Source: a virus
Lineage: Duplodnaviria > Caudoviricetes
Length of the DNA stretch: 64,000 nt
Direction: 5' to 3' (one strand)
Virus record (IMG/VR): IMGVR_UViG_3300030376_006203
Coordinates: 84,057-148,056 of that record
A program made the translations under genes and the position numbers. Of this stretch, positions 27,607 to 63,840 are shown piece after piece. The notes beneath the pieces were generated by a model. That model saw only the letters and a list, made by a program, of their open reading frames with translations. It was not told the DNA's origin and ran no database searches. Every line of letters starts with the position of its first letter. Within the stretch, counting starts at the first letter, position 1.

Positions 27607-28290
27607 TTAATGTGCGTGTTTAATGTAATATTCTTCTACTCTTTGCCACCAAAGGTCTTTGTATTTTGCGTAATTTAAAGGTGTAATGTCAAACTGCTGA
27701 TAAGTCAAGTCTCTAGCACACATAAAAACGTGTCCTTCTTTTATAGAAGTTCCATAAGTTTCATTGTGTGCTTCAGCATAAGCAACCAACTGTAAAAAGT
27801 AATCTTCAATCCATTCCTTCTTTTTAGGCTTGTTTGTCTGCTTAAAGTCAATAATGCAAGGTTCACCTTTGTATTCACCTACACAGTCTGTGGTACCTGC
27901 ATATATTTTAGGAAAATATAACCCAACTTCACTGCCCCAAATCTCATTCACATCCTTCAAAGCATTTTCATGAACAACCTTTGCCATTTTAAATGCCTGT
28001 TGAGCATAAGGATTTGAACCTGGTTGATTCCATTCACCTTTAGCAATATAATCTTCTATGTATTTGTGCATTCTAGTTCCTATACCTGATGCCTCTTTTG
28101 TAATACGCACAGCATTTTGTTCGCCAACTCTTTTGCGCCATTCAATAAGATGTGTTTTATCTTTGGTAGAATCCAGTATAGTGGTTACACTTGCCACAGC
28201 ACTGCCGTCTGGACATTGATAAACTCTCTTGCCATTCAAAGAAGTTCGTGATAGTTTTTGATAATCTATTTTGTTTGTAATTAAAGTCAT
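27607..28290 (-). CDS. PD-(D/E)XK exonuclease (Cas4/MGME1-like)
   Basis: SVTTIL, GTRMH, YAGTTDC, IIDFKQ, QLVAYA. Confidence 0.85.
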   Translation of the reverse strand: MTLITNKIDYQKLSRTSLNGKRVYQCPDGSAVASVTTILDSTKDKTHLIEWRKRVGEQNAVRITKEASGIGTRMHKYIEDYIAKGEWNQPGSNPYAQQAFKMAKVVHENALKDVNEIWGSEVGLYFPKIYAGTTDCVGEYKGEPCIIDFKQTNKPKKKEWIEDYFLQLVAYAEAHNETYGTSIKEGHVFMCARDLTYQQFDITPLNYAKYKDLWWQRVEEYYIKHAH

Positions 28291-28880
28291 TTATTTACTG
28301 CTTCGCTGTTGAATGCGAAACTCATTCTGTTGTTAGTTTTACTCAACGCATGACTGACATAATGCCATAACCATGACGGAAAGTACACACATTGATTTAG
28401 TTGTGGCTGTACATCTACCCTATCACTATTGAATTCATTCATGTGTTCTATTATATTGCTTTTGAACACATAACTCATTTGATTGTTTGGATTTATAAAA
28501 GTAAGTGGAGCACATCCAGTATCTGCTATGGGCCAATACACAGCACTGAAAACTCCATCTACGTGTCTGTGTGGTGCTTCTATGGCACTGTTGTCACTGC
28601 CGTCATTTACCCAGAGACTGGAAACTATTTGTTTGTGGTTGTTGCTTAAACCGATTTGATTGTGTAGGTTGTTAAATCCATTTTCAATTTGCTGTACAAG
28701 TTCTTTTAACACAGGTTCATCTACATTAAGATGATTAGTGCCTGTGGATCTATAATTTGGTGTATTGTCGTGATGTATTTCTTCTCTAGACCAACTCACT
28801 AGTTCATCTTTGTTTGAGATGTCTATGTTTTCAACTGCGATGAAACTGCTAAAGATAGGATTAATTTTCATAATACCCAT
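28287..28880 (-). CDS. 2OG-Fe(II) oxygenase (TIGR02466-like)
   Basis: WVN, PHRH, FSAVYW, FPSWLWHYV, RMSFAFN. Confidence 0.85.
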   Translation of the reverse strand: MGIMKINPIFSSFIAVENIDISNKDELVSWSREEIHHDNTPNYRSTGTNHLNVDEPVLKELVQQIENGFNNLHNQIGLSNNHKQIVSSLWVNDGSDNSAIEAPHRHVDGVFSAVYWPIADTGCAPLTFINPNNQMSYVFKSNIIEHMNEFNSDRVDVQPQLNQCVYFPSWLWHYVSHALSKTNNRMSFAFNSEAVNK

Positions 28881-36897: not shown

Positions 36898-37013
36898 AGT
36901 CTTGCCCTACTTTTTACTATTTACCGATTAGAAAGCAAATATAAAGCAGGTATTCATAGTATAGCAGGTCTAATTTTGGTTGTCAATCTTTTAATTGATG
37001 GTGTATTTGTGCC

Positions 37014-37021
37014 TATAAATA
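37014..37021 (+). promoter_or_regulatory. T4 late promoter TATAAATA
   Basis: Exact consensus 11 nt upstream of ATG 37033. Confidence 0.65.
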
Positions 37022-37032
37022 CATATATTATT

Positions 37033-37311
37033 ATGAACTTTTTACAATTTGTATCAGAAGTAGGATTTCCAATAGCAGGTGCTGTGGCATCTGGTGTGTT
37101 CATATTCATCATTTTAAAATTTATATTAGCCACTGTGACAGGGTCTGTGAATGGTCTTAAAAACATCATTAAAGCACTGGACAACAGAGTTCAGACCATG
37201 AACAATGATCTAATTAAGATTGATGCTTTGCTTTCACACGTGACTGGAGTCAAACCCAATGTTGATAGACTTGCCGCCAACGAAGGCAAGGAAGATGCGA
37301 GGAAAGACTAG
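37033..37311 (+). CDS. small membrane protein (YvrJ/holin-like), paralog 1
   Basis: EVGFPIA + TM + coiled coil RVQTMNNDLIKI. Confidence 0.7.
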   Translation: MNFLQFVSEVGFPIAGAVASGVFIFIILKFILATVTGSVNGLKNIIKALDNRVQTMNNDLIKIDALLSHVTGVKPNVDRLAANEGKEDARKD

Positions 37312-37578
37312 ATGATCACACTTGAATTTGCCAACGCAATCAAAGAATTTGGATTCCCTATTGTAGCCGCATTTGGTTTGGGTTACTTTGTTTACTATGT
37401 GTGGACTTGGGTAACCAAAGAAATAAAACCTGTATTGGGCGAAGCCAACACAACACTGATAGCACTCATAGATAGAATAAGAATGTTAGACAATGACATG
37501 ATACGTTTAACACAAAAGTTAAACATGGTGCTTGAACACAAAGAAAAGCAAGACAAGAAAAAATCTAAGAAGACTTAA
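37312..37578 (+). CDS. small membrane protein, paralog 2
   Basis: EFGFPIV + TM + RIRMLDNDMIRL. Confidence 0.7.
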   Translation: MITLEFANAIKEFGFPIVAAFGLGYFVYYVWTWVTKEIKPVLGEANTTLIALIDRIRMLDNDMIRLTQKLNMVLEHKEKQDKKKSKKT

Positions 37579-39496
37579 CAGTATATACTTTAATATTCTC
37601 AGTCTTACCTTTGACTGTGATGCTGTCTATATAATCAAACGGGTAAACAGTTTCAATGGTGTGTCTTGTGTCCTCACCTATCACTATGGTCTTGCCTAAT
37701 GTTTTGCTTGAACTTTCTAATCTACTTGCTAGGTTAACTGCGTCACCAATCACTGAGTAATCAAATCTCTGTTCCGATCCCATGTTACCAACCAATGCGT
37801 CACCTGTATTGATTCCTATCCCTATGTTTATTTGAGGAAGTCCTTCTGCTTGAAGACGTACATTTAATTCTGCTAGTGCCTTAGTCATCTCAAGAGCACT
37901 CTTAACTGCCATCTCTCTATGTTTTTTATTTTCAATAGGTGCGTTCCAGAATGCCATGATACAGTCACCCATGAACTTGTCTATGGTTCCACCATTTGAT
38001 ATTATCACATCTGTCATGCGTGTTAAGAATCTGTTAATCAATTTTGTTAGTCCTGCTGGATTGCCTTTGTACTTCTCACTGATAGGTGTGAAGCCTCTGA
38101 TGTCACAGAACAAGAATGTCATGTTCCTTGTTTCGCCACCCAGTTTCAACAGAGATGGATCCTTCTGTAATTTTTTAACCATGCCAGGATCAAGATAGTG
38201 TTCAAACTGTTTCTTAATTTGTTGTCGCAGTCTGCTCTGTGTGGCAAAATTATTGTACACAGAATGAGACCAAATCAAAAACACAGACAACATTATCCAA
38301 GATGGATCTACAAGAAATCCTCTGTTGGTGTATGCCATGAATGATCCGTAGGCAACACCTACTTCCACAAACAACAATAGAGGCACAGCCAACAACACAC
38401 TGGTTCTAGGTAATACCATTATCAACAATAATAGTAACAGTGCCATAAACACAATTTCATAAGTGTCTGCTTGAGGTGTACGCAACAAATATTTGTCTGT
38501 GAGTAAAGTATCTAATGCTTGGGCAGTTATGTTCTGATCTGTTGTAAGTCCGTGTGGTGTATATTTTAACACACTCAATCCCGCGGCATCTAAACCAACA
38601 ATCACAATTCTATTTTTTATTTTGTTTTCATTGTAATTGCCTGAAAGAATATCACTTGCTGTCATATTCACATACATTGTAGGATCAGCATAGTTGATAT
38701 ACATTTCTGCATGATGATTCACAGGTATGCCTGCTTTTTTACTCACAAGCACTTCATCTATGCCATGTTGTTTGGCTACAACTTTAATTCTTTTTGAATT
38801 GTTTAACAACCTAACATTTTCTAATATCATGCTGGGATAAATTTTTCCATTTATTCTAATCAACACAGGCATTTTTCTTACCACAGCATCTGGTTCTGGT
38901 GATGTTACATTTACTCCCATACCAGTGGCACCTGCTGAGACTTTTGCGTGTGGAGAAACAATGCCACCAAACTCATACAACCATGGTTTGACATTGCCCT
39001 TTTCGATAATCTTTGTGGTGCTGGGTAAATTTGTATCAGACTCATTTTTCACACTCATCATGAGTACTGCTTTATTTGATTCTTTCAACACTATAGAAAA
39101 CACAGCATCTGTATCCAATAAAATATTACTCAATTGATCCCGCACATCATTAGTCATGGGCATTGATTTTAAATATTCAACGCCACTCATTCTATCTGGT
39201 TCAGCAAATAATATATTGTAGTTCACAAGTATGGCACCAGCATCAGACAGTTTAGCATGAAGCATAGCCATTATGTGTCTGGGCCATGGCCATTGCCCAT
39301 ATGTTTTTAAATCTTGTTCTGTGATGTTTACCACAGTGACTGAATCACTTACAATCTGTCTTGGTTGTATTGTTTGAAATTTGTCCCATGTCTTGTATCT
39401 TAAAATTTTTATTGTGTCACTGTTGTCTATTCTTATTCCAGTCAACACTATGGCAAACACAATCACCATCCATATGCTTGTTAAAAATTTATTCAT
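37565..39496 (-). CDS. CHASE2-domain class III adenylate/guanylate cyclase
   Basis: GQWPWPR and DAVVRK CHASE2 motifs, three TMs, FCDIRGFT, DKFMGDCIMAFW, DYSVIGDAVNLASRLES, VKGK; the K/D specificity residues suggest ATP. Confidence 0.93.
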   Translation of the reverse strand: MNKFLTSIWMVIVFAIVLTGIRIDNSDTIKILRYKTWDKFQTIQPRQIVSDSVTVVNITEQDLKTYGQWPWPRHIMAMLHAKLSDAGAILVNYNILFAEPDRMSGVEYLKSMPMTNDVRDQLSNILLDTDAVFSIVLKESNKAVLMMSVKNESDTNLPSTTKIIEKGNVKPWLYEFGGIVSPHAKVSAGATGMGVNVTSPEPDAVVRKMPVLIRINGKIYPSMILENVRLLNNSKRIKVVAKQHGIDEVLVSKKAGIPVNHHAEMYINYADPTMYVNMTASDILSGNYNENKIKNRIVIVGLDAAGLSVLKYTPHGLTTDQNITAQALDTLLTDKYLLRTPQADTYEIVFMALLLLLLIMVLPRTSVLLAVPLLLFVEVGVAYGSFMAYTNRGFLVDPSWIMLSVFLIWSHSVYNNFATQSRLRQQIKKQFEHYLDPGMVKKLQKDPSLLKLGGETRNMTFLFCDIRGFTPISEKYKGNPAGLTKLINRFLTRMTDVIISNGGTIDKFMGDCIMAFWNAPIENKKHREMAVKSALEMTKALAELNVRLQAEGLPQINIGIGINTGDALVGNMGSEQRFDYSVIGDAVNLASRLESSSKTLGKTIVIGEDTRHTIETVYPFDYIDSITVKGKTENIKVYTVKSS

Positions 39497-39858
39497 CCTA
39501 ATTCTTTCAGTCCTTCAAGTATGCCAATTGATACGCCAAAGAACAGTGAAAGTCCTAACATTATCACAGGACTTAATAACCACAAGTACCAGTAGTAACG
39601 AAATATATTCTGTCCTCTTGCCAATCTTATTTTACGTTGATCCAAAAACCAATGCACTATTCTTTTTATAAAGCCTTTGATATGTTTGTTTACAAATTTA
39701 TTCAACAACCAACGTATCACTCTCATCACAATCAGTATGGGAGAACTCAGCACATCAAACACAATCAGGAACACATCAACACTGAAGTCTACAATGTTGT
39801 CTGCTGTGCAGGCTTTCTTCCATCTCTCTTTAAGTGTAAGTTTCTTTTGTTCTTCCAT
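39493..39858 (-). CDS. membrane protein
   Basis: Two hydrophobic segments; overlaps the cyclase start. Confidence 0.65.
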   Translation of the reverse strand: MEEQKKLTLKERWKKACTADNIVDFSVDVFLIVFDVLSSPILIVMRVIRWLLNKFVNKHIKGFIKRIVHWFLDQRKIRLARGQNIFRYYWYLWLLSPVIMLGLSLFFGVSIGILEGLKELG

Positions 39859-39859
39859 T

Positions 39860-40585
39860 TTATCTTTCTTGTAGTGCTTGACCAATGCTGTTATGGAATG
39901 GTGTTGTAATATAACTTAAAATTGTTCGCTCTCCAGTCAAAACAAAAACGTGTACCTGTACACCCGGCACCAACTTATACTGCATTTCTCCATTGGCAAA
40001 AGCCTGAGAATCTAATTCTAATTCTATTTCATAGTAAGACATTGTTTGTTTTTGTACAGCATCAGGCGATATAGATATTATCTTTGCTCCTATAGGAAGA
40101 TATGTAAATGCTTCAGAACTTGCCAATTTTATTTTTGCTGATTGTCCTACTTCAACATAACCTCTGTCTTTAACTTGTAATTGTCCTTGAACAATTAATT
40201 TTTGATCTAGTGGTACCAACACTGCCAAAGCATCACCTTGTTTAACAACTGATCCTGGATTTTTAAACGTAAGTTCTTGTATCTTTCCATCTATGTTTGC
40301 TTTGATATGATAAGGTTCATAGCCTACACCTGGATTGATTGTGATTATGATGTCGCCTTTGTTGACCACATCTCCTTGTTTGTGATTTACTTTTACAATC
40401 TCTCCTGTAACCATGGTGCCAAGTGTTGTAATATTTTTCTCAGGTACAACCAGTCCATTGGCAACAGTGGTTATGTCAACTTTAGAAAATGACATCCACA
40501 CAAAGAACACAACAAATAGACTTGTCAACAAGACAAAGAATTTATTGTTTGATGAAACTGATGATTTCTGTTGTTGCTCTATCAC
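39860..40585 (-). CDS. HlyD-family membrane fusion protein (short)
   Basis: TM, ANGLVVP, GDVVNKGD, IKANIDGKI, GSVVKQGD, ISPDA, LVPG, TGERTILSY. Confidence 0.85.
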   Translation of the reverse strand: MIEQQQKSSVSSNNKFFVLLTSLFVVFFVWMSFSKVDITTVANGLVVPEKNITTLGTMVTGEIVKVNHKQGDVVNKGDIIITINPGVGYEPYHIKANIDGKIQELTFKNPGSVVKQGDALAVLVPLDQKLIVQGQLQVKDRGYVEVGQSAKIKLASSEAFTYLPIGAKIISISPDAVQKQTMSYYEIELELDSQAFANGEMQYKLVPGVQVHVFVLTGERTILSYITTPFHNSIGQALQER

Positions 40586-41294
40586 GTTGTTTTATTGCCT
40601 CCTTTGCTTTGGCATATTTGTTAGCACCTTGCAGTGCTCTTGCCGCCAATATGTTTGAACCTATTAGTAGTCCCACATCCAATGAGCCTGCGATAATTTG
40701 TGTCGCACCTACTGACATAATAACCACTGTCATAAGTCCTGTTAAAAATATTTCTAAATTTGTTGTGCTGTGAATCTGCAGGCTTAGGTTCATTCGTTGT
40801 GCTGTCAACACTATCATTATAATCATGAATATAGCCGCAATTATTGCCGCTGTCCAATTTATGTACAGCAACACAATAAGAAATGCCAACACGAATGGCC
40901 AATCTAGAATCCAACCGGTTGTGGCTGATGTCCTCATATTTTTTATTGTTGTGCCTGCACCATCCAACTTTTTATATTGCTCGGCTGTGAGTTGTCCTGC
41001 TTTGCTGAATTTTTCTCCAAATGCTTTCAACAGAGGATCGTAAACACGTTGGTTGTGTGCTGTCATCATTGCGCCTCTATTCTGTCTGAATCCAAATTCA
41101 AACGCCAGCAACATAATGGCTCCCATAGCCAAAGATATTAATGTTGATGTAACTCCTGATGCTAGATATTTGTTTAACACAATTATCACAAACAACGCAG
41201 GTGCCAAGGCACAGATGTTGATGATCAAACTGCTTGTTAATAGCATTATAGCATTCGATTTATCGCGGAATAACTGTCGTAAAAAACTTGTCAT
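40542..41294 (-). CDS. type I secretion ABC transmembrane domain, no nucleotide-binding domain
   Basis: SLIINICALAPALF, ILDWPFVLAFL, GSLDVGLLIGSNILAARAL; no Walker A/B or LSGGQ. Confidence 0.8.
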   Translation of the reverse strand: MTSFLRQLFRDKSNAIMLLTSSLIINICALAPALFVIIVLNKYLASGVTSTLISLAMGAIMLLAFEFGFRQNRGAMMTAHNQRVYDPLLKAFGEKFSKAGQLTAEQYKKLDGAGTTIKNMRTSATTGWILDWPFVLAFLIVLLYINWTAAIIAAIFMIIMIVLTAQRMNLSLQIHSTTNLEIFLTGLMTVVIMSVGATQIIAGSLDVGLLIGSNILAARALQGANKYAKAKEAIKQRDRATTEIISFIKQ

Positions 41295-41303
41295 ATATAG
41301 TAG

Positions 41304-41309
41304 TATTTA
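41304..41309 (-). promoter_or_regulatory. late promoter core TAAATA
   Basis: 9 nt upstream of the ABC-TMD ATG. Confidence 0.5.
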
Positions 41310-41322
41310 ATTGATTTGGTAA

Positions 41323-43059
41323 TTAAAGAAGTGGGTCCACAAGACCTAACACCTTGTGCAGTTGATATCTAGCAATCTGCCAATCTATCAATGCGTTGGC
41401 ATAGGCAACTTCACTCATTATGTGTGCTGTCTTCATGCCAAACACAGCCATGATAGGTGAATTTCCTGCTTGAAAATCTGCCAGTGTCAATTTGTACATT
41501 TCATCGTTGATTTCAACTGTTCTTTTCAAAGTAGCCAGATTCTTTTCAACCAACACATAATTGTTCCAAGCATTATCAAACTGTTCTTGTGTGGTTCTTA
41601 ACACATCCGTATATCTAAAGTTTGCGGCATTCAAACGAGAACGGTCTGCGTTTGTCAAGTGTCTGTTTTTAAAATTAAACAGTTTCCATGTCATTGTGAT
41701 GTCTGCTCTCCACTCTTCTTTTTGTGAATTATGTGTGTCATAACCACCACCTAGTTCACCGTCCTTCTCTGTGTATGAAAGTTTGCCGTCAACTCTAGGT
41801 TTGAATTCCGCACGGTCAAAATTTAATTGTTCTTGAGCAATCGTGATATCCATGCTGGCAATACGCAGTGTGGTATTATTGGACACTGGAGTTCCTTGTA
41901 CAGGAATCATGCCCAATGCATCCACTAAAGGTTTTGGCATACCTGCGATGTTGTGTGGCTTGAATCTCCAAACGTTTTGGAATCTCTGTATCGCACTATC
42001 AAGACCTAGTCTGCTTGTCATTGAAAGTGTTTGATATGTTCTGTATTGTTGTTCTATTTGCAGTTGTTCCAATTTAGAACCTTCACCTTTTTTAACTTTT
42101 TCTATTGTCATAGCAAGTGTAACTTTAGCATTGGCTTCTACTTTTTTATTGGCTTCGTGTGTGTTGTATGCTTTCATCAAGTTTAACCAAGCATTGATTG
42201 CCTCAATGATCACATCTTCTTTTACCAGTTCTAATCTGTAGTGTGCCTGTTGAGCAGTTGCTTTGGCTTTGTCTATCATGGCATTGGTTCTGCCTGCGTC
42301 CCAAATCATTTGTGTGATTGTGATTGACTTTTGAATACCTTGTTTAGAATCATGTGTGATTGTGTTGTTGGGATATGTACCTTTAGCAGGAGTTCTGTCG
42401 TCTTCCCAGTTGTTGCCAATTGATATAGAAACTTGCGGATAGTATGCTGTGTATTCTGATTTGAGTGCCTCAACAGCCGCTTCGTAATCAAGTTCTGCCG
42501 CTTTGATCTTTTCGTTCTCAACAATCAGTCTTGGTAACAATTCATGAAACTGCATCCATGTAATTTTTTGATCAGCATCAACATCAGCCCATTCTTTTTC
42601 AGTAGCCTGTTCTACCAATTTCTCATCTGCTTTGGCATCTATTTCTTTTTTAGCAATTTCTTTTTTTACTTCAGGCTTCTGTGTTTCTTCAACAGATGTT
42701 TCTGCCAGTTTCTTTTTCTCAATGTGTTCTTTAACTTTGTCTTCTGTTGCTATTACTTCTTTTTCAATTTTTTCTAACTTTTCTACCTTCTCTGTGGCTT
42801 TGGGAGCCTCTTCAACTTTGTCTTTGAATTTCTTTATGGGATTTTCTTTTTTCTTTTTGGGTGCTTCAACTATCTCTATGGTTAATCCTTCCACAGGTTT
42901 GGATCTAATCCTTGCTTGATTATCACCACACTTCTCTTGGATATAAGTTTCTGTTTCCTCAACCACTTCCCATTCACAACCTCCACTGTCTTCCGCAAAG
43001 ACGGCTATGTTCCAATTGAACATAATTGCTATCAAAATGTAGTGTACGAGTTTGTTCAT
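41323..43059 (-). CDS. TolC-family outer membrane channel with a charged N-terminal extension
   Basis: Signal peptide; AYYPQVSI, ITQMIWDAG, FKPRVD, MTWKLF, ARYQLHKVLG outer-membrane efflux repeats. Confidence 0.85.
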   Translation of the reverse strand: MNKLVHYILIAIMFNWNIAVFAEDSGGCEWEVVEETETYIQEKCGDNQARIRSKPVEGLTIEIVEAPKKKKENPIKKFKDKVEEAPKATEKVEKLEKIEKEVIATEDKVKEHIEKKKLAETSVEETQKPEVKKEIAKKEIDAKADEKLVEQATEKEWADVDADQKITWMQFHELLPRLIVENEKIKAAELDYEAAVEALKSEYTAYYPQVSISIGNNWEDDRTPAKGTYPNNTITHDSKQGIQKSITITQMIWDAGRTNAMIDKAKATAQQAHYRLELVKEDVIIEAINAWLNLMKAYNTHEANKKVEANAKVTLAMTIEKVKKGEGSKLEQLQIEQQYRTYQTLSMTSRLGLDSAIQRFQNVWRFKPHNIAGMPKPLVDALGMIPVQGTPVSNNTTLRIASMDITIAQEQLNFDRAEFKPRVDGKLSYTEKDGELGGGYDTHNSQKEEWRADITMTWKLFNFKNRHLTNADRSRLNAANFRYTDVLRTTQEQFDNAWNNYVLVEKNLATLKRTVEINDEMYKLTLADFQAGNSPIMAVFGMKTAHIMSEVAYANALIDWQIARYQLHKVLGLVDPLL

Positions 43060-43069
43060 TATATACCTA

Positions 43070-43075
43070 TATTTA
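43070..43075 (-). promoter_or_regulatory. late promoter core TAAATA
   Basis: 10 nt upstream of the TolC ATG. Confidence 0.5.
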
Positions 43076-43078
43076 GCA

Positions 43079-46000
43079 TTATCCAGAAACCACCACTTCT
43101 GAGATCAATGCTGACTCTGTCTCGATCAGTGCGTAGTTGATGTCATCAAATTGTGAGAAATTACTCAGGTCAAGATATGCGTTGTAGCCTGTGGTGTTTG
43201 CGACCGTGACTGTGTTGCCGATCTCCACTGACCAACTGCCACCGCTGTATGTGACCGGTGTCACTTTGAAAGAGTAGTCGCCTGTGGCATCAGAGTCCTG
43301 TGTCAGATAGTCCTCTGAGTCATCCAGGATCTTGATCTTGTCCAGATTGAAAGTGTCAGTGGTCTCCCAAAGGTCACCGTCTCCGTCCCTATCGTATCCT
43401 ATCACACCATAGTGGTCATCCGCCTGTGTGGGTGTTGGTCCGGCGTCCATGTCTGTGTTGAAGGCCCAATATACAGAGTCCGCCGAGTCATCCCACACAA
43501 GGTCAATGTGGTCCATACCACCACCGATGTACACGTTGTTGCCCAGGTGTATGGCCTCAACAGCGGTGATGTCGTTCTCTGCGGTGTGCGTTCCTGAGCC
43601 AACTGTGTCTCTGAATACTGGAATGAATTCCGAGTCAACCACTATGCCTGCACCGTCGGATTCTGTCATTGCGTCCTCGTTCTGTTCTTGAAGCCACGTG
43701 GCAATTTCCTTGTGGTGATTCGTACTTCCGATGTAACCCGAAGAACTGTGACCGTCGATGTCACCCCAGGCAAGGAATGTTCCTGTGTATTCTGCTTCTG
43801 TGTCCTCTCTGCTCCATTCCGCTATCGCACCCTCATTGCCGTCACCGTTTGAGGAAACTAGATCTCCCCTACCCATGTATTCCTTGTGATAGACTGATGT
43901 GGAACCTCCCACAGTTGCACTCAACACACTATTGGTGTCACTCCAGGCCCTGTATTCTGCCGCTATATTCTGACTACCATTACCCACACCACTTATCATT
44001 CCTGTGTTGGTGGATGACGTGGTGTCAATGATGTTGATGAAATCTTCCTGGTCCTGATTTCTTTTATCGTCCCAATAACTGTGTTCAGTGATGGACACCA
44101 GAGAACCTCCTGACATCAAGTATGCCTTCCAGGCGTCGGTTAAGGAAGTGTTAGTGTTGATACGAGTGTTCCAGTTGAAGTCCCAGATCTGTGAGAACTG
44201 TGAGGCATATTTGAGTGTATTGGACGCCCAGTTACCCGAAGCGTCTGTGTCATACGTTACAGAGAACAAATCATCCAGTTGGCCACCCGCCTGGTTGTTT
44301 CCACTAATACTTCTGTCACCATGCAACGCCAAAATCTTGCCTTCCGCCCATGCGTTGTTCAACACCATGTCCTGTGAGTACCTTGCTCCCCAGGCATCTA
44401 ATGAGGTGTTGCTTATGCTTTGGGTGTGTGTTGCGGAGATCACCTCGTTGACGTCCGTGACATTGACCACTTGGTTCGTAGTTGATGTGTTGCCAAATGC
44501 ATCTGTGGCTGTGATTGTTAAATTGTAACTGGTTGTGGTCTCATAGTCCAGTGCCGCCGCTGTGGTGATTGCACCTGTGCTGGAGTTTATTGTGAATGCG
44601 TTGCCTGTGTTACCTGCTGTGATTGAATATGTGATTGTTTCACTCTCTGCATCAGAGGCAGATATTGTTGACACTGATGTGCCTGTGCTGACATCCTCTG
44701 CCAATGACACAGCACTGGTGTTGGATATCACAGGTGAGTGATTGTTCTCCACAGTGATCTGCCATTCGTCAATGTCTGCGGCTCCGTATGGATCTTGCAC
44801 TTTCAATAATATGCTGTATGTGGTGTCCTCTGTGACAGAGAAAGCAGAGTCTAAATAAATTCTATTGCCAGATATTCTTAACTTTCCTGATGGATCAGCA
44901 AATATAGAATAAGTCAATTGATCACCATTGGCATCTGACCCATACACATTTCCTAAAGTCGATCCCACTGCTAGGTTTTCATTCACACTCACATCATTTG
45001 GCATATCCAACCAAGGTGCTACATTTACATCTTGTTCTTGGGCCAGTTCGTAAATGAATTGATCCATGATATCATCGGCTTCAATGGCATTGTAGTAGGC
45101 ATTTTCGTTGGCATCTACCACTTCAAACAAATCATCTTGTTCTGCCTCTAGAGCATAATAATCATCAGCATTCATTATGCCATCTCCAGCACCATCAAAA
45201 TATTCATCAATATTACCTGCATTGACCACCATCATGTCTTTGACTTGCTGATCAACCACTTCGTTTTCAGGATCCATTTCTTTGAAAAAATCTTCCATTT
45301 CTTGTGCGATAGGTTCTTCAGCCAACACTTTCTCTTTTTCTTCTTGTAGTAACTGTTCTACCACTTGGTCATCTACTTGATTTTCTTCATCAACGTCGAA
45401 CACATCATTGTCTTCATTGAAACCTGGACCGTCTTCTGGATTGACTATTTCTCCATTATCCAAATTAATCATTACATTGTCTTCTTCAATCATTTCTTCT
45501 AGTTCTTGAAATTCTTCGTTGTTTTCCAATTCCTGCATCTGCTCTTTAACATTCTCTTCAGCAAAAATATCTTCAGGTTCTTCCTCAATGATTTCTTGTG
45601 GTTTATCAATCTCTTCTTTGATTTCTTCCATCACATTTTCTTTGAATTCTTCTATAAATTCAATTGGTGCTTCTTCTATGAACTGTTGGAGTTCTTCTTC
45701 AGGTATAAAGTTTTCAAACTCCTGAACAAATTCTTCTTGGAACTTTTCAAAGTTTTGTACAATGGCTTCAAATCTTTCTTCAACTGCTAGAACTTTTTGT
45801 TCAACAATTAATTCTTGTTCAATAACTTGTTGAACTTCTTTTTCTACAATTTCAACTTTGGCTTCTATCTCTGCAAAATCTTCTTGTACTTCAGCAAATT
45901 CTTTCTCTATCTCTTGAACTTTCTTTTCAACATCGGCTTTCTTTTCAGCCACCACTTCAATCTCTTTTTCTATTTGTTGTACTTCTTCTTCGATCTCTTC

Positions 46001-46978
46001 GAATTCTTCTTCTAGTTGTTGTAGTTCTTGTTCAATTTTTTCTCTTTCTTCAACAGGTGCGTCATCCAATTGTTCTTCTAGTTCCTCAATTTCTTCTGCA
46101 ACTTCTTCTTTCTTTTCTTCGGCTTGTTCTTTTTCTTCTAAAACTTGTTCTTCGGCTTCTTCTAACTCTTCAGCCTCCTCTTCAAGTTCTTCAGCCTCCT
46201 CTTCCAATTCCTCAGATTTTTCTTCAAGTTCTTCAGCCTCTTCTTCTAGTTGTTCTTTTTCTTCTTCAAGTTCCTCTTTTTCTTCTTCTAATTCTTCCGC
46301 CTCTTTTTCTGCTTCTGCTTTTTCTTTAGCGGCTTCTTCAGTTTCTCTTTCAACTTCTGCTTTGGCTTCTGTTTTTTTAGTTGTTGCGATTGTAGTAGCA
46401 AACTTTTTAAGCACCACTTCTTTTGGCAATATGACTGGAACTGTAGGCACAGTGTATGGATCAGTGATCACTGTGGCTTGGTATGCCTCAGTCAATAGCA
46501 CTTCACCAGATTCGTTTTTAATCATTACTTGTCCAACTGAACCATCTTCGTTGGGTAACAATACTATCTCGTTTTCTTCTCCATCTGTGTTGGCTTTACC
46601 CGCTACCTGTGTGCCTCTTACACCAATAGTCAATACGGGTGTTGTCACCTTCATAGCGTCATTGCCTACCTTGGCAATCTGTCCTGAAACAAAAGAAAAG
46701 TTACCTTCTAACACATTGGCATTCATAGATCCCACAGTTGGATTCTCAGGATCATACACAAAGTCGTCAATCACCATTGTGCTGTTTGGGTCAACAGACA
46801 TTGTGGTCTCATCTGCAAAAGCAATACCCACAGCAGTTCCGCCTGCACTGATTACGTCATCAAGATAGATGAAATCACCTTCGTTCAATGTCAATGTCTG
46901 ATCACCACGCTGAATCGTAAACGATTGTTCCGCTGTGGTAATTTTTCCAATTGCTTGTGGATCTTTGAAAACTGCCAT
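43079..46978 (-). CDS. large FecR/retention-domain, acidic coiled-coil, cadherin-repeat protein (putative T1SS substrate/adhesin)
   Basis: N-terminal FADETTMSVDPNSTMVIDDFVYDP...TPVLTIGVRGT; Glu-rich heptads; two cadherin repeats (SVNEN..., SLAED...LDYETTTSYNLTITATD...VTDVNE); no signal peptide. Confidence 0.85.
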   Translation of the reverse strand: MAVFKDPQAIGKITTAEQSFTIQRGDQTLTLNEGDFIYLDDVISAGGTAVGIAFADETTMSVDPNSTMVIDDFVYDPENPTVGSMNANVLEGNFSFVSGQIAKVGNDAMKVTTPVLTIGVRGTQVAGKANTDGEENEIVLLPNEDGSVGQVMIKNESGEVLLTEAYQATVITDPYTVPTVPVILPKEVVLKKFATTIATTKKTEAKAEVERETEEAAKEKAEAEKEAEELEEEKEELEEEKEQLEEEAEELEEKSEELEEEAEELEEEAEELEEAEEQVLEEKEQAEEKKEEVAEEIEELEEQLDDAPVEEREKIEQELQQLEEEFEEIEEEVQQIEKEIEVVAEKKADVEKKVQEIEKEFAEVQEDFAEIEAKVEIVEKEVQQVIEQELIVEQKVLAVEERFEAIVQNFEKFQEEFVQEFENFIPEEELQQFIEEAPIEFIEEFKENVMEEIKEEIDKPQEIIEEEPEDIFAEENVKEQMQELENNEEFQELEEMIEEDNVMINLDNGEIVNPEDGPGFNEDNDVFDVDEENQVDDQVVEQLLQEEKEKVLAEEPIAQEMEDFFKEMDPENEVVDQQVKDMMVVNAGNIDEYFDGAGDGIMNADDYYALEAEQDDLFEVVDANENAYYNAIEADDIMDQFIYELAQEQDVNVAPWLDMPNDVSVNENLAVGSTLGNVYGSDANGDQLTYSIFADPSGKLRISGNRIYLDSAFSVTEDTTYSILLKVQDPYGAADIDEWQITVENNHSPVISNTSAVSLAEDVSTGTSVSTISASDAESETITYSITAGNTGNAFTINSSTGAITTAAALDYETTTSYNLTITATDAFGNTSTTNQVVNVTDVNEVISATHTQSISNTSLDAWGARYSQDMVLNNAWAEGKILALHGDRSISGNNQAGGQLDDLFSVTYDTDASGNWASNTLKYASQFSQIWDFNWNTRINTNTSLTDAWKAYLMSGGSLVSITEHSYWDDKRNQDQEDFINIIDTTSSTNTGMISGVGNGSQNIAAEYRAWSDTNSVLSATVGGSTSVYHKEYMGRGDLVSSNGDGNEGAIAEWSREDTEAEYTGTFLAWGDIDGHSSSGYIGSTNHHKEIATWLQEQNEDAMTESDGAGIVVDSEFIPVFRDTVGSGTHTAENDITAVEAIHLGNNVYIGGGMDHIDLVWDDSADSVYWAFNTDMDAGPTPTQADDHYGVIGYDRDGDGDLWETTDTFNLDKIKILDDSEDYLTQDSDATGDYSFKVTPVTYSGGSWSVEIGNTVTVANTTGYNAYLDLSNFSQFDDINYALIETESALISEVVVSG
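46150..46310 (-). repeat. imperfect 21-nt tandem repeats encoding EEEAEEL/EEEKEEL heptads
   Basis: For example tcttcagcctcctcttcaagt repeated; protein AEELEEEKEELEEEKEQLEEEAEELEEKSEELEEEAEELEEEAEEL. Confidence 0.7.
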
Positions 46979-47004
46979 GTGTTCGTACCCTTTTCTATTA
47001 TTAT

Positions 47005-47010
47005 TATTTA
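47005..47010 (-). promoter_or_regulatory. late promoter core TAAATA
   Basis: Upstream of the 1299-aa gene. Confidence 0.5.
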
Positions 47011-47111
47011 ATTAAGTGTGCAGTTATTATAAAAGATATTTTAATGATTAACTACTCACTTAATTGTAAAAACGCACTAAAATAAACACCTTGCTTTTTT
47101 TAAATAACACT

Positions 47112-47528
47112 ATGAAAACATTGGTTGCTTTTATCCTATTGTGGATTGGTGCTGAAACAGATTACAACACTAACATACCTCATCCTAAAATTCTATTGGT
47201 GCCTGAAAGCACTCTAGTAAAAATGCACTATGGCAATCAGAAAGCAGAAGACACTGTTCATGCCTTGTACAACACAGAGAACAACACCATATATCTCAAA
47301 GACACTTTCAATCAATACAAAGTCTTTGACAAAGGTGTGCTGATGCATGAAATCATGCATTACGTTCATGACATGAATGGAGCAGTGGGAACCAAGTTTG
47401 ATTGTATGGCACAATCTGAAGCAGAAATATATCCACTTCAAAAGAAATATCTAATAGAAGTTCACGGGGTCAAATGGGAATACGATCCTATGTGGCTTAA
47501 AATTATAAGCAGTTGCGATAAGCCTTAA
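47112..47528 (+). CDS. secreted HExxH protein
   Basis: Hydrophobic N-terminus, ALYN..NNTIYL, LMHEIMHY, EAEIY; TAAATA at 47101. Confidence 0.7.
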   Translation: MKTLVAFILLWIGAETDYNTNIPHPKILLVPESTLVKMHYGNQKAEDTVHALYNTENNTIYLKDTFNQYKVFDKGVLMHEIMHYVHDMNGAVGTKFDCMAQSEAEIYPLQKKYLIEVHGVKWEYDPMWLKIISSCDKP

Positions 47529-47766: not shown

Positions 47767-48429
47767 TTATATATTTGTGATATTTTGTAAACCTAATTGA
47801 GATCTTCCACCTTGATCAAATTTACCAAAAGCAAATAGATTAAAAGCAATACAATATCTTTCTGTGTTGCTTTTACTAGGATTGACACTGTGTGATAATG
47901 TTGAAGGAAAAATGACCATCATGTTGTTTTGTGGAGGTATCGCAAATGCTTCTGAATTACAAATGTTAAAATTTTTATTTTTGTATGGCACATTCACTGT
48001 GGGTGTTAAGACATTATAGTTTGTTTTTTCTTTGTGAAATACAATTTCGCCACTGTCTTGTTCTGTTTGTAGATAGTACACAGCACTGAACATACTGCCT
48101 GAATGCGAATGAGCACCGCTTTCGTCACCTTTGATATGTTTTACACTCCAACTGTTTGTGATATCGAACTTGGCTTTAGACTCATCTATATCTAATACTT
48201 CGTGTAGAAAGTGTTCACATTTATGTAAAAGTTTTTGTTTTAAATTTTTAAGTTCTGGCTTGTCTAACAAAAATTTATCCATAGAACCAAAGCCATTGTC
48301 AGCGGCAAATCTTTCATACTCTTGTGACTTAACAAAATTAAATTCTTCATCAGTCACACCTGGTTCTATCACAGTTTGATACAAAGGTATTCCGAACAAA
48401 GGAATCATATTGAAGTTTTTATCAGTCAT
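47767..48429 (-). CDS. 2OG-Fe(II) oxygenase (TIGR02466-like)
   Basis: HSHSGSMFSAVYY, IFPSTLSHSV, RYCIAFN. Confidence 0.85.
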   Translation of the reverse strand: MTDKNFNMIPLFGIPLYQTVIEPGVTDEEFNFVKSQEYERFAADNGFGSMDKFLLDKPELKNLKQKLLHKCEHFLHEVLDIDESKAKFDITNSWSVKHIKGDESGAHSHSGSMFSAVYYLQTEQDSGEIVFHKEKTNYNVLTPTVNVPYKNKNFNICNSEAFAIPPQNNMMVIFPSTLSHSVNPSKSNTERYCIAFNLFAFGKFDQGGRSQLGLQNITNI

Positions 48430-48997
48430 TTTTAAATTTTATTATAAAGTTTAACACAATTCGAGTATGATTGTCAACAGGATTTGTGCTGGTATGATAC
48501 CAATCACTTTCAAACATCACGGCAGTATTCTTTTTTGGTGATGCTGTATCCTGTATTTGTAAATTATCAAAACCTTGATTGCCTTTTTTATCGAACATCA
48601 CAGTGTCTCCATCAGAGTCATTCACATAATATATCATACTATGCCATCCTTCTCGATCTCTATCCACGTGAGGACAGTTCATAATGGCTTTACCACTATT
48701 GTTCTGCGTCAATAGGTTTGCTTTTATTCTGCCTATTTCTACAATTTCTTTATCAAGACTGTTTAGGATTGGTTCAACCAGATTCCAATAAGGACTTAAT
48801 GGTTGTTGATCATACAACAAATGTATGAATTGTCCAGACTCATACAAGTCAAACGAATTTGATTCGCTCACTACTTGTTTAACTTCTGGTGGTACTGTGC
48901 CTGGCAGATAATGCCAATCAAATTTAAACGATGTAAATGTGTCGTATAGTTGATTGTATTCTGCTTCTGGTAATATATTTTCTATTCGTTTGAACAC
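48422..48997 (-). CDS. 2OG-Fe(II) oxygenase
   Basis: RIKANL, PHVD, IYYVNDSDGDT, HTS, RIVLNF. Confidence 0.85.
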   Translation of the reverse strand: MFKRIENILPEAEYNQLYDTFTSFKFDWHYLPGTVPPEVKQVVSESNSFDLYESGQFIHLLYDQQPLSPYWNLVEPILNSLDKEIVEIGRIKANLLTQNNSGKAIMNCPHVDRDREGWHSMIYYVNDSDGDTVMFDKKGNQGFDNLQIQDTASPKKNTAVMFESDWYHTSTNPVDNHTRIVLNFIIKFKND

Positions 48998-55489: not shown

Positions 55490-57142
55490 ATGGCTATAAA
55501 CGGTAAAACGAAACAAGTAGAATTTGGTTCTCGTAGCAGAGCAAAATTAATACAAGGGGTAGATGTTCTAGCAAATGCTGTAAGAACAACCTTAGGACCA
55601 AAAGGTAGAAACGTAGTGCTTCAAAGAACTTGGGGAGCACCTGCTGTAACCAAAGATGGTGTCACAGTTGCTAAAGAAATTTTATTGAAAGACGACCTAG
55701 CGAACATGGGTGCCCAGATGGTCAAGGAAGTGGCAAGCAAAACCAACGATGAAGCAGGTGATGGTACGACCACTGCCACAGTTTTGGCACAGGCAATTGT
55801 CAAAGAAGGCGCCAAATATGTCACGGCCGGAATGAATCCAATGGATTTAAAAAGAGGAATGGACAAAGCCACAGATGCCGTTATAGAACAATTAACAAAT
55901 ATTTCTAAACAATGTAAGACTCAAAACGAAATACAACAAGTTGGAACTATTTCAGCAAACTCAGATGAAGCAATAGGTTCTATGATTGCTGAAGCAATGG
56001 ATAAGGTTGGCAAAGAAGGAGTCATCACTGTTGAAAAAGGTAAGACTTTAAAGAATGAATTAGAAGTTGTTGAAGGATTACAATTTGACAGAGGTTTTAT
56101 GAGTCCGTATTTTATAAACAATCCAGAAAAACAGATTGTTGAATTAGAAGATGTTTACATCATACTGACAGGAAAACATATTAGAACAATCCAAGAGATA
56201 GTGCCAATACTAGAAGAACTTGCCAAAAAGAATAAGCCATTTCTTTTAGTTTGTGAAGATGCTGAAGGAGAAGCATTGGCTACTCTAGTAATGAATAATG
56301 CCAAAGGCACAATTAGATGTGCTTCTGTTTGGGCTCCTGGTTACGGTAACAGTAGAAAAGCCATGCTACAAGATATGGCAATATTAACTGGCGGTGATGT
56401 TATATCAGAAGAAACAGGTTTAAGTTTAGAGAAAGCCAAATTAGAAAATCTTGGTCAAGCATCAAGAGTTATCATAGACAAAAGCACAACCACAATTATT
56501 GGTGGTAAAGGATTCAAATCTAAAATAGATGGCAGAATAGTTGAGATCAAAAAACAAATTGAATTGAGTGAAGGCGGTGATGACAAAAAGAAATTAGAAG
56601 AAAGATTAGCCAAGTTGACCGGTGGAGTTGCTGTCATAAGAGTTGGAGCCGCAACAGAAGTTGAAGTCAAAGAGAAAAAAGATAGAATAGACGATGCCTT
56701 GAATGCTACCAAAGCCGCTGTAGAAGATGGTATAGTGCCTGGTGGTGGAGTGGCATACCTTAGAGCCAAACAAAATATTGCTGACCTTAAAGGACACAAC
56801 GAAGATCAGACAGCAGGAGTGCAAATTGTGTTGAAAGCAATTGAATCTCCAGTGCGACAAATAGTAGCCAATGCTGGTGGATCACCAGATGTGGTAGTAA
56901 ATGAAATATTAAATGGCAAAAACAATTTTGGTTATGATGCTGGTAAAGGAGAATTTGGTGATATGATCAAATTAGGAATAATTGATCCTACCAAAGTTAC
57001 GAAGACTGCTCTATTGAATGCGTCAAGTATTGCTGGACTGTTGATTACAACAGAAGCATCAGTGTTTGATGAGCCAGAACCCCAAAAGAAAGACTGGGAT
57101 CCTGTAAGTGGTAACATGAAAGAGGGTGACTTTTACAGTTAG
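55490..57142 (+). CDS. groEL: chaperonin GroEL
   Basis: [53 protein letters not shown]. Confidence 0.97.
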
Positions 57143-57224: not shown

Positions 57225-59141
57225 ATGAGTAAAATAATAGGAATAGACTTGGGTACAACCAATTCGTGCGTTGCTTTGATGGAAGGTAAGGACGCAAAGG
57301 TTGTTGAAAATACAGAAGGAGCAAGAACCACTCCAAGTGTGGTTGCGTTTACAGACTCTGAAACATTGGTTGGAATGCCTGCTAAAAGACAAGCAGTGTC
57401 CAACACATCTAACACAATATTTGCGGCAAAACGTTTGATTGGTAGAACATTTGAAGGTGATGCTGTACAAAAAGATATTAAGACACTTCCTTACGAAGTT
57501 GTGAAAGCAGACAACGGTGATGCGTGGGTTAAAGCCAACGGCAAAAACTATGCTCCATCAGAAATTTCTGCTTCAGTATTACGTAAGATGAAAGAGACAG
57601 CAGAGAAATATTTGGGTCAAGAAGTTAAGAAGGCAGTTATCACAGTACCTGCTTACTTCAATGATAGCCAACGTAAGGCTACAAAGGACGCAGGGAAAAT
57701 TGCTGGACTTGAAGTTGAAAGAATTATAAATGAACCAACAGCGGCGGCATTGGCATACGGACTTGACAAGAAAAAGTCAGGCACGATTGCTGTGTATGAC
57801 CTAGGTGGTGGTACATTTGATATTTCCATATTAGAATTAGGCGATGGTGTATTTGAAGTTAAGTCCACAAACGGTGACACAACACTGGGTGGTGAAGACT
57901 TTGATGCTACAATCACTGATTATATCATTAGTGAATTTAAAAAGGATCAAGGAATTGATCTTGCTAATGACAAGTTGGCAGTACAACGTGTGAGAGAGGC
58001 GGCTGAAAAAGCCAAGATAGAACTTTCAAGCACAACTCAGACTGATATCAACTTGCCGTTTATCACAGCAGACAAGACAGGTCCAAAACACATCAACATG
58101 AAGATGACAAGAGCCAAACTAGAAGCATTGGTTGGTGACCTTGTGGCAAAAACACTTGCTCCATGTAAACAGGCATTGAAAGATGCTGACGTAAAAGCAG
58201 GTGATGTAACAGAAGTAGTGTTGGTTGGTGGTATGACTAGAATGCCAAAAGTGTTTGACACAGTCAAAGAATTCTTTGGTAAAGAACCACACAAAGGTGT
58301 TAACCCAGATGAGGTTGTGGCATTGGGTGCCGCAATACAAGGTGGTGTGCTACAAGGAGATGTCAAAGATGTCTTGTTGTTAGACGTTACACCATTATCA
58401 CTAGGTATTGAAACATTAGGCGGAGTAACAACCAAATTGATTGAGAAGAACACAACAATTCCTACAAAGAAAAGTCAGGTGTTCTCAACAGCAGAAGACA
58501 ATCAAGCGGCTGTTACCATCAGAGTAACACAGGGTGAACGGGAAATGGCGGCTGATAACAAGTTGCTGGGTAACTTTAACCTTGAAGGTGTTGCTCCTGC
58601 TCCAAGAGGTGTGCCTCAAATCGAAGTAACATTTGACATTGACGCTAACGGTATTGTGAGTGTGGGTGCTAAAGACAAAGGCACAGGCAAAGAACAGAAG
58701 ATCACAATCAAAGCAGATGGTGGACTTTCAGATGAAGACATTGAGAAAATGGTTAAAGAAGCAGAAGCCAACAAAGAATCGGACAAGAAGAAAAGAGAGT
58801 TGGTAGAAGCAAAAAATCAATCTGAAACATTAACACATCAAATTGATAAACAACTCAAAGAACATGGCGACAAGATATCTGAAGAGGAGAAGAAAGCAAT
58901 TGAAGATGCCAAAACAACTTTAATTGAAGCAACCAAATCAGATGATGTGAGCAAGATTCAAGAAGGAATCAAAACACTCACTGAAGCATCAATGAAGTTG
59001 GGTGAAGCAGTTTACAAACAGGCACAACAAGAACAAGCACAAGAACAAGCACAACCTGAACAAAAGGAAGGTGCTGATGAAAATGTTGTAGATGCTGACT
59101 TCAAAGAAGTAGATCCAAAAGAAGAAGAAGACAAGAAATAA
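57225..59141 (+). CDS. dnaK: chaperone DnaK (Hsp70)
   Basis: [46 protein letters not shown]. Confidence 0.98.
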
Positions 59142-61762: not shown

Positions 61763-61838
61763 GCCGCTTTAGCTCAGTTGGTAGAGCAACTGATTTGTAA
61801 TCAGTAGGTCCGCGGTTCGAATCCGTGAAGCGGCACCA
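61763..61838 (+). tRNA. tRNA-Thr(TGT)
   Basis: Cloverleaf, GTTCGAATC, encoded CCA. Confidence 0.95.
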
Positions 61839-63510: not shown

Positions 63511-63585
63511 TGGAGCGGGTAATGGGGTTCGAACCCATGACCTTCTCGTTGGCAACGAGACGCTCTACCACTGAGCTACACCCGC
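63511..63585 (-). tRNA. tRNA-Gly(GCC)
   Basis: Cloverleaf with CCA. Confidence 0.95.
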
Positions 63586-63610
63586 CTTTTTTGTATGTAT
63601 TATACAAAGT

Positions 63611-63684
63611 TGGACACACCGGTGAGAATCGAACTCACATACAAGGATTTGCAATCCTCTGCGTAACCATTCCGCCACGGTGTG
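63611..63684 (-). tRNA. tRNA-Cys(GCA)
   Basis: Cloverleaf, U73 discriminator, CCA. Confidence 0.93.
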
Positions 63685-63685
63685 T

Positions 63686-63760
63686 TGGCGGTCCCACGGG
63701 GAATCGAACCCCGCTTTCATGGATGAAAACCATGTGTCCTAACCGATAGACGATGGGACC
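63686..63760 (-). tRNA. tRNA-Glu(TTC)
   Basis: Cloverleaf with CCA. Confidence 0.93.
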
Positions 63761-63763
63761 GGT

Positions 63764-63839: not shown

Positions 63840-63840
63840 T

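Follow-up and report, generated by a model that had tools for sequence, protein, structure and literature searches.

Fibre-secretion genes of marine phages are already known to keep company with signalling genes: a FecR-domain protein and an adenylate cyclase were described in 2022 as associated and co-selected with the curli (type VIII secretion system, T8SS) clusters of SAR11 phages (PMC9599517), whereas both go unmentioned in earlier papers on pelagiphage curli phages. In bacteria, too, genes for FecR-domain proteins adjoin those for CHASE2 sensors, as in the BiofilmReg operon of Burkholderia (PMC5192318), and the adhesin LapA is held in its TolC-like pore by an N-terminal retention module, modelled on that of the Marinomonas adhesin MpIBP (structure 5ix9; bioRxiv 10.1101/198937). 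Here we analyse six consecutive, co-oriented genes (37565-46978, minus strand; Table 1) in a window of 64 kb, which is the last part of the 148-kb IMG/VR virus record IMGVR_UViG_3300030376_006203 (CheckV completeness 41%). They encode a giant FecR/cadherin protein without signal peptide, a TolC-family channel, the transmembrane domain (TMD) of an ABC exporter, a HlyD-family membrane fusion protein, a small membrane protein (p130) and a CHASE2 class III nucleotide cyclase, all as listed in a first-pass annotation of this DNA. That annotation knew of no characterised phage system of this kind, a statement overtaken by the clusters described in 2022: the module is a variant, derived from a type I secretion system (T1SS), of a known phage theme that joins fibre secretion, FecR and a cyclase, and is not unprecedented. 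No paper on the T1SS-derived form was found, and the literature on phage TolC or T1SS and on phage CHASE2 cyclases yielded nothing specific. We give roughly even odds (about 0.5) to the reading that the module is a phage-borne derivative of a bacterial repeats-in-toxin (RTX) adhesin T1SS operon joined to a CHASE2 cyclase, which would couple a tethered surface adhesin to cyclic-nucleotide signalling. The most unusual trait of the module is that ATPase, coupling loop and TolC-docking hairpin have all been lost, and that this loss is conserved.

Relation to phage curli clusters and bacterial adhesin systems

Over its full length the cyclase is 29-34% identical to the cyclases of Pelagibacter phage HTVC008M, Melnitz and two further metagenomic phages, and in these four sources the operon runs CsgF-CsgG-curlin-FecR protein-(curlin)-cyclase, with the cyclase last. 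The pelagiphage cluster (HTVC008M gp014-gp019; Melnitz gp99-104) shares with the present locus the FecR protein (gp017, 36% identical to the N-terminus of the giant protein), the CHASE2 cyclase (gp019, 34%), an equivalent position with common 2-oxoglutarate (2OG)-Fe(II) oxygenase and phrog_18771 flanks, and the pairing of an outer-membrane secretion channel with a secreted fibre protein in marine phages. It differs in its secretion genes, which are CsgG, CsgF and curlin there and TolC, a TMD without nucleotide-binding domain (NBD) and a hairpin-less HlyD here; no CsgG, CsgF or curlin-repeat gene was found within the module or directly beside it. It differs also in the FecR protein, which carries a Sec signal in the pelagimyophages, whereas in the window it has none and is fused to an acidic and cadherin-containing extension of about 1100 aa. 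In both cases the export signal fits the route, since a T8SS is fed from the periplasm and a T1SS from the cytoplasm. The locus is thus the positional counterpart of the pelagiphage curli cluster with its secretion system exchanged. What stays constant across the lineages is a channel in the outer membrane, a fibre or adhesin that is secreted, a presumed periplasmic FecR-fold domain and a CHASE2 cyclase, and the FecR-CHASE2 association pointed out in the first-pass annotation is borne out by a pair that travels together across phage lineages (PMC9599517).

Complete bacterial counterparts, of ancestral type, are T1SS operons in metagenome-assembled genomes (MAGs) of marine Rhodospirillaceae (L042, L043), which encode an outer-membrane efflux protein, an RTX protein of 928-1353 aa, a full ABC exporter (TMD and NBD) and a full HlyD in an order similar to that of the phage genes. 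The prefix and FecR domain at the substrate N-terminus are 33-36% identical to the phage proteins, the ABC TMD 28-32% and the C-terminal half of HlyD 33-36%. In contrast with the phage set, the bacterial operons retain the NBD, the coupling loop and the hairpin of HlyD, no CHASE2 cyclase lies within 8 kb, and TolC has no phage-like extension rich in Lys and Glu at its N-terminus (its start codon being uncertain). The LapA and MpIBP adhesins with their LapEBC exporter resemble the phage module in a giant acidic adhesin without Sec signal, an N-terminal domain matching 5ix9, an Ig-like or cadherin extender, a Ca-binding or RTX C-terminus (here in orthologues) and a dedicated TolC-like gene. They are unlike it in that the phage set lacks an ATPase, a C39-like domain and the hairpin of the membrane fusion protein, has no adjoining LapG or LapD genes and no dialanine cleavage site, is virus-encoded, and has a CHASE2 cyclase as partner where LapA is under proteolysis controlled by c-di-GMP.

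FecR-fold domains serve as periplasmic protein-protein signalling modules. The Burkholderia BiofilmReg operon, in which a LysM-FecR protein is encoded with a CHASE2 histidine kinase (PMC5192318), likewise places an exported FecR protein beside a CHASE2 membrane sensor, but its output is a histidine kinase, its FecR protein is small and Sec-exported, it has no secretion-system genes, and the pairing there is functionally uncharacterised. With the FecR anti-sigma regulators the giant protein shares the periplasmic FecR fold, also known as the C-terminal cell-surface signalling domain (CCSSD; 6ovk, 4m0n), and not the cytoplasmic anti-sigma domain, the single transmembrane (TM) helix or the cognate extracytoplasmic function (ECF) sigma factor: no anti-sigma or sigma matches were found in the locus, and the FecR domain stands at the extreme N-terminus with no TM helix.

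Components of the module and their conservation

The three secretion-related proteins are T1SS-derived. PF02321 matches the TolC protein in two stretches (E 3.5e-51), and TIGR01844 matches it with E 1.3e-28, under the curated cut-off of that model; the protein has a signal peptide, a Cys-x15-Cys motif and an N-terminal extension of about 100 aa rich in Lys and Glu, the motif and the extension being kept in relatives. The TMD protein, with about six TM helices and no NBD, matches positions 140-304 of the T1SS protein LssB (E 6.9e-21). The nearest full-length relatives of the TMD-only family are PrtD-type ABC exporters of 545-590 aa. Aligned with these, the TMD-only proteins lack about 56 aa between TM4 and TM5, corresponding to the NBD-coupling loop, and stop exactly at the start of the NBD; both deletions are common to all members. 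As the alignment begins at residue 1, there is no N-terminal C39-like domain of the LapB type. HlyD, whose gene overlaps the TMD gene by 44 nt, is matched by TIGR01843 with E 1.1e-48; its residues 22-90 correspond to 66-133 of E. coli HlyD (8dck_C) and residues 94-241 to 330-478. The alignment skips the alpha-helical hairpin (134-329, 196 residues), which normally contacts and docks TolC, so the phage protein lacks it, as it does most of the cytoplasmic tail. Searches of PDB sequences with phmmer gave no matches for TMD or TolC. The T1SS-like apparatus of the first-pass annotation is therefore upheld as to the origin of TolC, TMD and HlyD but not as a working canonical T1SS: lacking the ATPase, the coupling loop and the hairpin of HlyD, the phage parts alone cannot run ATP-driven export of that type. 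The hairpin loss and the coupling-loop deletion are not mentioned in that annotation.

The giant protein is the putative T1SS-type substrate. Its FecR domain spans aa 43-139 (PF04773, E 1.6e-7) and its cadherin domain aa 757-840 (PF00028, E 1.7e-19); the N-terminus is not hydrophobic, a Sec signal and a TM segment are absent, and the composition is extreme (304 Asp and Glu against 67 Lys and Arg, no Cys). An AlphaFold2 (AF2) model of aa 1-195 (pLDDT 84.5) matched the PupR CCSSD 6ovk and the anti-sigma protein BDI_1681 4m0n in Foldseek (probability 1.0, TM-score about 0.5), and the first 70 residues or so matched 5ix9, the MpIBP retention module, with 36% identity over 61 columns, an rmsd of 1.3 A and probability 1.0; a sequence profile of the N-terminal domain also found 5ix9 in the PDB (E 5.9e-4). 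The acidic linker gives weak matches of the SMC/Rad50 coiled-coil type, and conservation is high over the last 200 aa or so, which contain a DxDGDGD motif and the invariant tail INYALIETESALISEVVVSG. The model of the C-terminal 454 aa, built on a four-sequence alignment, was unusable (pLDDT 38).

All orthologous giants lack a Sec signal and have 263-397 acidic against 50-109 basic residues and at most one Cys. Two C-terminal alleles occur among them: that of the window is common to L004, L011 and L031-L033, and another (L003, L010, L013, L014) has RTX repeats and a serralysin-like beta-roll (E 7e-14), with a sub-threshold match to T1SS_VCA0849, a T1SS C-terminal target domain. The 5ix9 match, the RTX orthologues and the bacterial operon homologues together support the earlier proposal that the giant protein resembles those T1SS adhesins that have a retention domain at the N-terminus. 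In many orthologues (P0277, P0279, P0283, P0299 and others; L004:1553-1783) the FecR domain is preceded by a prefix of about 77 aa (GxDLxI...LKDYF...), which also stands before the FecR domain in the substrates of the Rhodospirillaceae operons; the window's protein is without it, as judged from stop codons just upstream.

In the cyclase, CHASE2 (PF05226, aa 15-357, E 2.1e-39) is predicted to be periplasmic and is flanked by a TM segment at aa 5-23 and a hydrophobic block at aa 348-415; the catalytic domain follows (Guanylate_cyc, PF00211, E 1.4e-22), matching CyaB of Pseudomonas aeruginosa (3r5g) with E 1e-33. Its catalytic motifs are intact, as had been noted from the sequence: among relatives down to 30% identity D465, R467, K507, D511 and R592 are invariant and N588 is conserved in at least 90%. 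In class III cyclases the residues equivalent to D465 and D511 bind metal, that equivalent to K507 binds substrate, and those equivalent to N588 and R592 stabilise the transition state. A complex prediction for CHASE2 (aa 24-352) and the FecR region (aa 1-195) scored 0.00, which has no bearing either way.

The cyclase start overlaps the stop of p130 (ATGA). This small protein, which possibly starts at Met10 (118 instead of 130 aa), has no family match in Pfam and other library scans and is a variable accessory found in about 10 of 17 related loci. Its identification with the 129-aa ParB-like protein before the cyclase in L027 and L029 was rejected, the two not being homologous. In curli-type phages the gene immediately before that of the CHASE2 cyclase encodes this ParB/Srx-like protein of 129-133 aa, which has a DGHHR motif (L027:9241-9630, L029:12019-12420).

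The order TolC-TMD-HlyD-cyclase is kept in ten IMG/VR contigs whose TolC is 64-92% identical and in several metagenome contigs, and the giant gene precedes TolC wherever upstream sequence is present. Divergent TMD-only members (28-41% identity), their order being checked only in contigs long enough, have a TolC-like gene, TMD and a short HlyD, then a CHASE2 cyclase where complete; a long-read assembly that looked frameshifted (L030) was left out. One divergent relative has a small HTH_8 gene on the opposite strand between TMD and HlyD (L023:2723-2971, minus). Pairwise dN/dS is 0.03-0.18 for TolC, TMD, HlyD, p130 and cyclase in all computable comparisons except one, that of TMD with its most distant relative (0.45); gene by gene it is 0.03-0.14 for TolC, 0.11-0.18 for TMD besides that outlier and 0.05-0.18 for HlyD. 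These ratios point to strong purifying selection on the TolC-TMD-HlyD set despite its stripped state. Database homologues number 838 for the TMD protein and more than 1000 for the cyclase, many from Tara and other marine samples; among INPHARED phages neither the block nor TolC had a match by megablast or tblastn, cultured-phage relatives being found for the cyclase only.

The TAAATA cores reported earlier before the first three genes are indeed there (Table 1), and that of the TMD gene is kept even where TMD identity is only 34-41%. Overall the hexamer is depleted, the window having 45 copies where 77 would be expected. Non-coding DNA, 12% of the genome, holds 62 of the 109 copies in the genome, and among the permuted hexamers TAAATA ranks first within 40 nt upstream of genes (44 of 179). 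HlyD, p130 and cyclase have no such box before them, except that one of 16 relatives has a copy at -47 of HlyD, and these three genes each overlap their upstream neighbour in the window. Such placement is a real phylogenetic footprint and defines three units, namely the giant gene, TolC, and TMD-HlyD-p130-cyclase, the last following from boxes before TolC and TMD but not before the three genes that come after. The motif resembles T4-type late promoters, and it is this promoter-like character that would suggest late expression. Synteny in related contigs, the dN/dS values and the conserved boxes all agree with the earlier view that the block is integral to the phage lineage and no chimeric insertion.

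Flanking genes, carrier phage and possible host

Convergent with the cyclase gene lie two paralogous genes of the family phrog_18771, whose products share 45-66% identity with HTVC008M gp011/gp012 and with proteins of Melnitz and L027. Members of this family flank the FecR-cyclase module throughout the phages compared, and in L027 the run of genes to which they belong also includes LysC, a PG_binding_1 endolysin and a holin-like gene; a role in lysis or in the envelope is therefore possible. On the other side, divergent from the giant gene, is a small exported DUF6647 protein with a signal-peptide-like N-terminus and a HEIMH (HExxH) motif, whose gene has the equivalent position in L014 and L015 and which is a possible LapG-like processing protease for the adhesin. 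Farther out there are paralogous 2OG-Fe(II) oxygenases, and upstream of the module an aminotransferase, DUF454, an AlgH-like DUF179 and a speD-like gene.

The contig carries a T4-like DNA polymerase (26% identical to that of HTVC008M), a T4-like clamp loader (33%; gp44, matched by tblastn) and a ribonucleotide reductase 73% identical to that of HTVC008M, together with many 2OG-Fe(II) oxygenases, tRNAs, a transfer-messenger RNA (tmRNA) and, in the window but away from the module, a tail-spike-like gene with an Mtd_N domain. Multiple 2OG-Fe(II) oxygenases are typical of marine T4-like phages. In the 148-kb record tblastn found no homologues of the late transcription factors gp55 and gp33 or of gp45, gp32, gp41, UvsX or RegA, so that gp44 from the same set and the DNA polymerase from an earlier comparison are the only T4-type replication genes recovered; the capsid and terminase proteins of HTVC008M found no match in the record or in four related contigs. 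With a related contig of 229 kb, the carrier phage is much larger than phages of the HTVC008M type. An ABC ATPase of the related contigs was rejected as an exporter NBD on being identified as SufC; in L034 (G001:C1:6596-10057) a SufE-like gene and SufC are followed by a BtuB-like TonB-dependent receptor, another outer-membrane protein gene of the lineage. GroEL and DnaK are adjacent in the window, the latter about 66% identical to gammaproteobacterial DnaK sequences in the phage collection, and six tRNA genes lie at the contig end.

An alphaproteobacterial, possibly SAR11-like, host is hinted at, not proved, by four observations. The tmRNA is of the permuted, two-piece alphaproteobacterial type (RF01849, 92 bits; ARAGORN tag ADAELVAA); genes are shared with pelagimyophages; the whole phage module occurs on two contigs (L039 and L040; NZHE01000025.1, NZHE01000018.1) of the MAG 'Rickettsiales bacterium MED657', with a TMD 63% identical, these being either mis-binned phage DNA or a host hint; and the C-terminal half of the phage HlyD is closest to Pelagibacteraceae HlyD (38-42% identity). 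A tmRNA is likewise carried by the Methylophilales phage Melnitz.

Table 1. Positions in the 64-kb window of the module, its promoter-like boxes and sub-regions, and other genes mentioned in the text
Feature	Position	Strand	Basis or remark
Giant FecR/cadherin protein, 1299 aa	43079..46978	-	Pfam FecR and cadherin; putative T1SS-type substrate
N-terminal FecR-fold/retention-module domain (predicted), aa 1-195	46394..46978	-	AF2, Foldseek and profile
Glu/Asp-rich linker, about aa 200-650, 40% D+E	45029..46381	-	composition
Cadherin domain	44459..44710	-	PF00028
C-terminal region, aa 846-1299	43082..44443	-	alignment
TolC-family outer-membrane channel, 578 aa	41323..43059	-	PF02321 x2
NBD-less ABC exporter TMD, 250 aa	40542..41294	-	NCBIfam T1SS ABC matches
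Hairpin-less HlyD-family membrane fusion protein, 241 aa	39860..40585	-	TIGR01843
p130, small 2-TM membrane protein, 118-130 aa	39493..39885	-	two hydrophobic segments
CHASE2 class III nucleotide cyclase, 643 aa	37565..39496	-	PF05226 and PF00211
TAAATA, -32 of giant gene	47005..47010	-	present in 4/6 relatives
TAAATA, -16 of TolC gene	43070..43075	-	kept at -16/-17 in 10/10 relatives
TAAATA, -15 of TMD gene	41304..41309	-	kept at -14/-15 in 15/16 relatives
phrog_18771 pair, about 90 aa each, 1 TM and charged coiled coil	36976-37311 and 37312-37578	+	paralogous; convergent with cyclase gene
DUF6647 small exported protein	47091..47528	+	PF20352, E 1.4e-11; divergent from giant gene
2OG-Fe(II) oxygenase paralogues	47767-48429, 48422-48997, 28287-28880 (-)
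tmRNA, permuted, two-piece	19155-19506	-	RF01849
GroEL	55490-57142	+
DnaK	57225-59141	+
tRNA genes (Thr, Gly, Cys, Glu, Asp, Gln)	61763-61838 and 63511-63914

Proposed mechanism and alternatives

The adhesin-signalling reading draws on gene content, the domain deletions, the homology to a retention module and to T1SS operons, conservation, purifying selection and the swap at the curli locus. Under it, the giant protein, the TolC-like channel and the TMD, HlyD, p130 and cyclase of one transcription unit would be made late in infection, and the hyper-acidic giant would be threaded outwards, C-terminus first, so that its cadherin and C-terminal domains are displayed at the cell surface. The folded FecR-fold module, too bulky for TolC, would stay in the periplasm as in LapA and MpIBP, forming a plug beside CHASE2, and the state of the fibre (present, pulled, cleaved or ligand-bound) would set cyclic-nucleotide synthesis, with aggregation or 'sibling capture', superinfection exclusion and lysis timing as possible benefits. 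Export through these parts, periplasmic retention, contact between FecR and CHASE2, cAMP as the product and any downstream effect are the steps that we infer. Since the phage parts cannot hydrolyse ATP, the energy would have to come from a host T1SS (ABC protein and HlyD) or from the membrane potential and Ca2+-driven folding outside the cell.

A number of results weigh against this reading. No ABC ATPase (PF00005) was found in the 148-kb record, and in four related contigs the only one is SufC; deletion of the coupling loop, on which any NBD would dock, argues against simple use of a host NBD, and a continuous canonical conduit appears doubtful when the hairpin that contacts TolC is absent. 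In the window's giant protein a regular-expression search found no RTX nonapeptide, and its first 250 aa hold no LapG-type dialanine site ([TAP]AA[GV]); LapG and LapD are likewise missing among the immediate neighbours scanned. The second specificity position of the cyclase is Ser581 in the alignment with CyaB (3r5g), where adenylate cyclases that have been characterised carry Asp or Thr, which makes the nucleotide product uncertain, and no cNMP-binding domain was found in five phage fragments. Finally, Pfam families for T4-type Gp23, terminase and sheath had no match in the record and four related contigs, and the contig is taken as viral from its IMG/VR call and its gene content.

The missing ATPase, coupling loop and hairpin would fit if TMD, HlyD and TolC formed a regulated envelope pore or scaffold, comparable to a secretin or pinholin and serving lysis timing or the passage of small molecules, with the cyclase as its regulator and the giant protein acting elsewhere. 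Such a pore would suit the placement of TMD, HlyD and cyclase in one putative transcription unit, the lysis genes that abut the FecR-cyclase module in L027 and the phrog_18771 genes that flank it everywhere, and a phage CsgGF pore has been proposed for lysis timing (PMC9004378). We consider it unlikely, although it carries some weight, because in all loci with upstream sequence TolC is preceded by the gene of a giant protein that has the hallmarks of a T1SS substrate and a retention module, because the FecR protein is without Sec signal exactly where T1SS-like parts replace T8SS parts, and because no holin or endolysin adjoins the module among the window neighbours scanned. The same truncated TMD and HlyD might instead mix into a host T1SS, either poisoning host secretion or redirecting the host's ATPase machinery, together with the phage TolC, to export the adhesin. 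Pelagibacteraceae single-amplified genomes and marine Rhodospirillaceae do encode apparently full-length ABC and HlyD homologues, the cellular HlyD resembles the phage protein in its C-terminal half, and the tmRNA, the co-binning with a 'Rickettsiales' MAG and the pelagimyophage kinship hint at such a host; but the TMD is only 27-32% identical to cellular ABC proteins, which is low for heterodimerisation, and a heterodimer would have one NBD and lack one coupling helix, so that this explanation seems improbable. Quite improbable, too, would be a T1SS-like route independent of any ATPase, in which the giant protein (net charge about -240) is driven by the membrane potential and by Ca2+ folding in seawater and stalls on its FecR plug, whose position or tension CHASE2 would read; if true, it would give the infected cell a surface contact or mechano-sensor, for instance for lysis timing or the capture of sibling host cells.

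Two further explanations deny the module any joint function. Cadherin and Ig-like domains are common on phage particles, the conserved N-terminus and variable, allele-like C-terminal parts of the giant protein recall the evolution of tail fibres, and a tail-spike-like gene lies elsewhere in the window, all of which would suit a virion fibre or decoration protein whose adjacency to TolC, TMD, HlyD and cyclase means nothing. Since its homologues are substrates in bacterial T1SS operons, its N-terminus matches a retention module, its orthologues end in RTX repeats and its linkage to TolC is strict across lineages, we regard this as very unlikely. The idea of a host island that was captured recently, is now decaying and plays no part in infection, which might explain the truncations of ABC and HlyD, is hardly credible: the truncations are identical throughout a family diverging to 28% identity, dN/dS stays at 0.03-0.18 in all but one comparison, the promoter-like boxes are conserved, and marine homologues number in the hundreds.

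The lineage is common in marine metagenomes, so the module is probably expressed in many infected ocean bacteria. A natural, conserved T1SS-like machine without ATPase or hairpin would mean either hijacking of the host or a challenge to the minimal needs of type I export. Being kept with either a T8SS or a T1SS-derived set, the FecR-CHASE2 pair looks like the functional core and gives a way to test for the ligand or partner of CHASE2 sensors, which has long been elusive, and phages appear to select for fibre display together with second-messenger signalling regardless of the secretion route.

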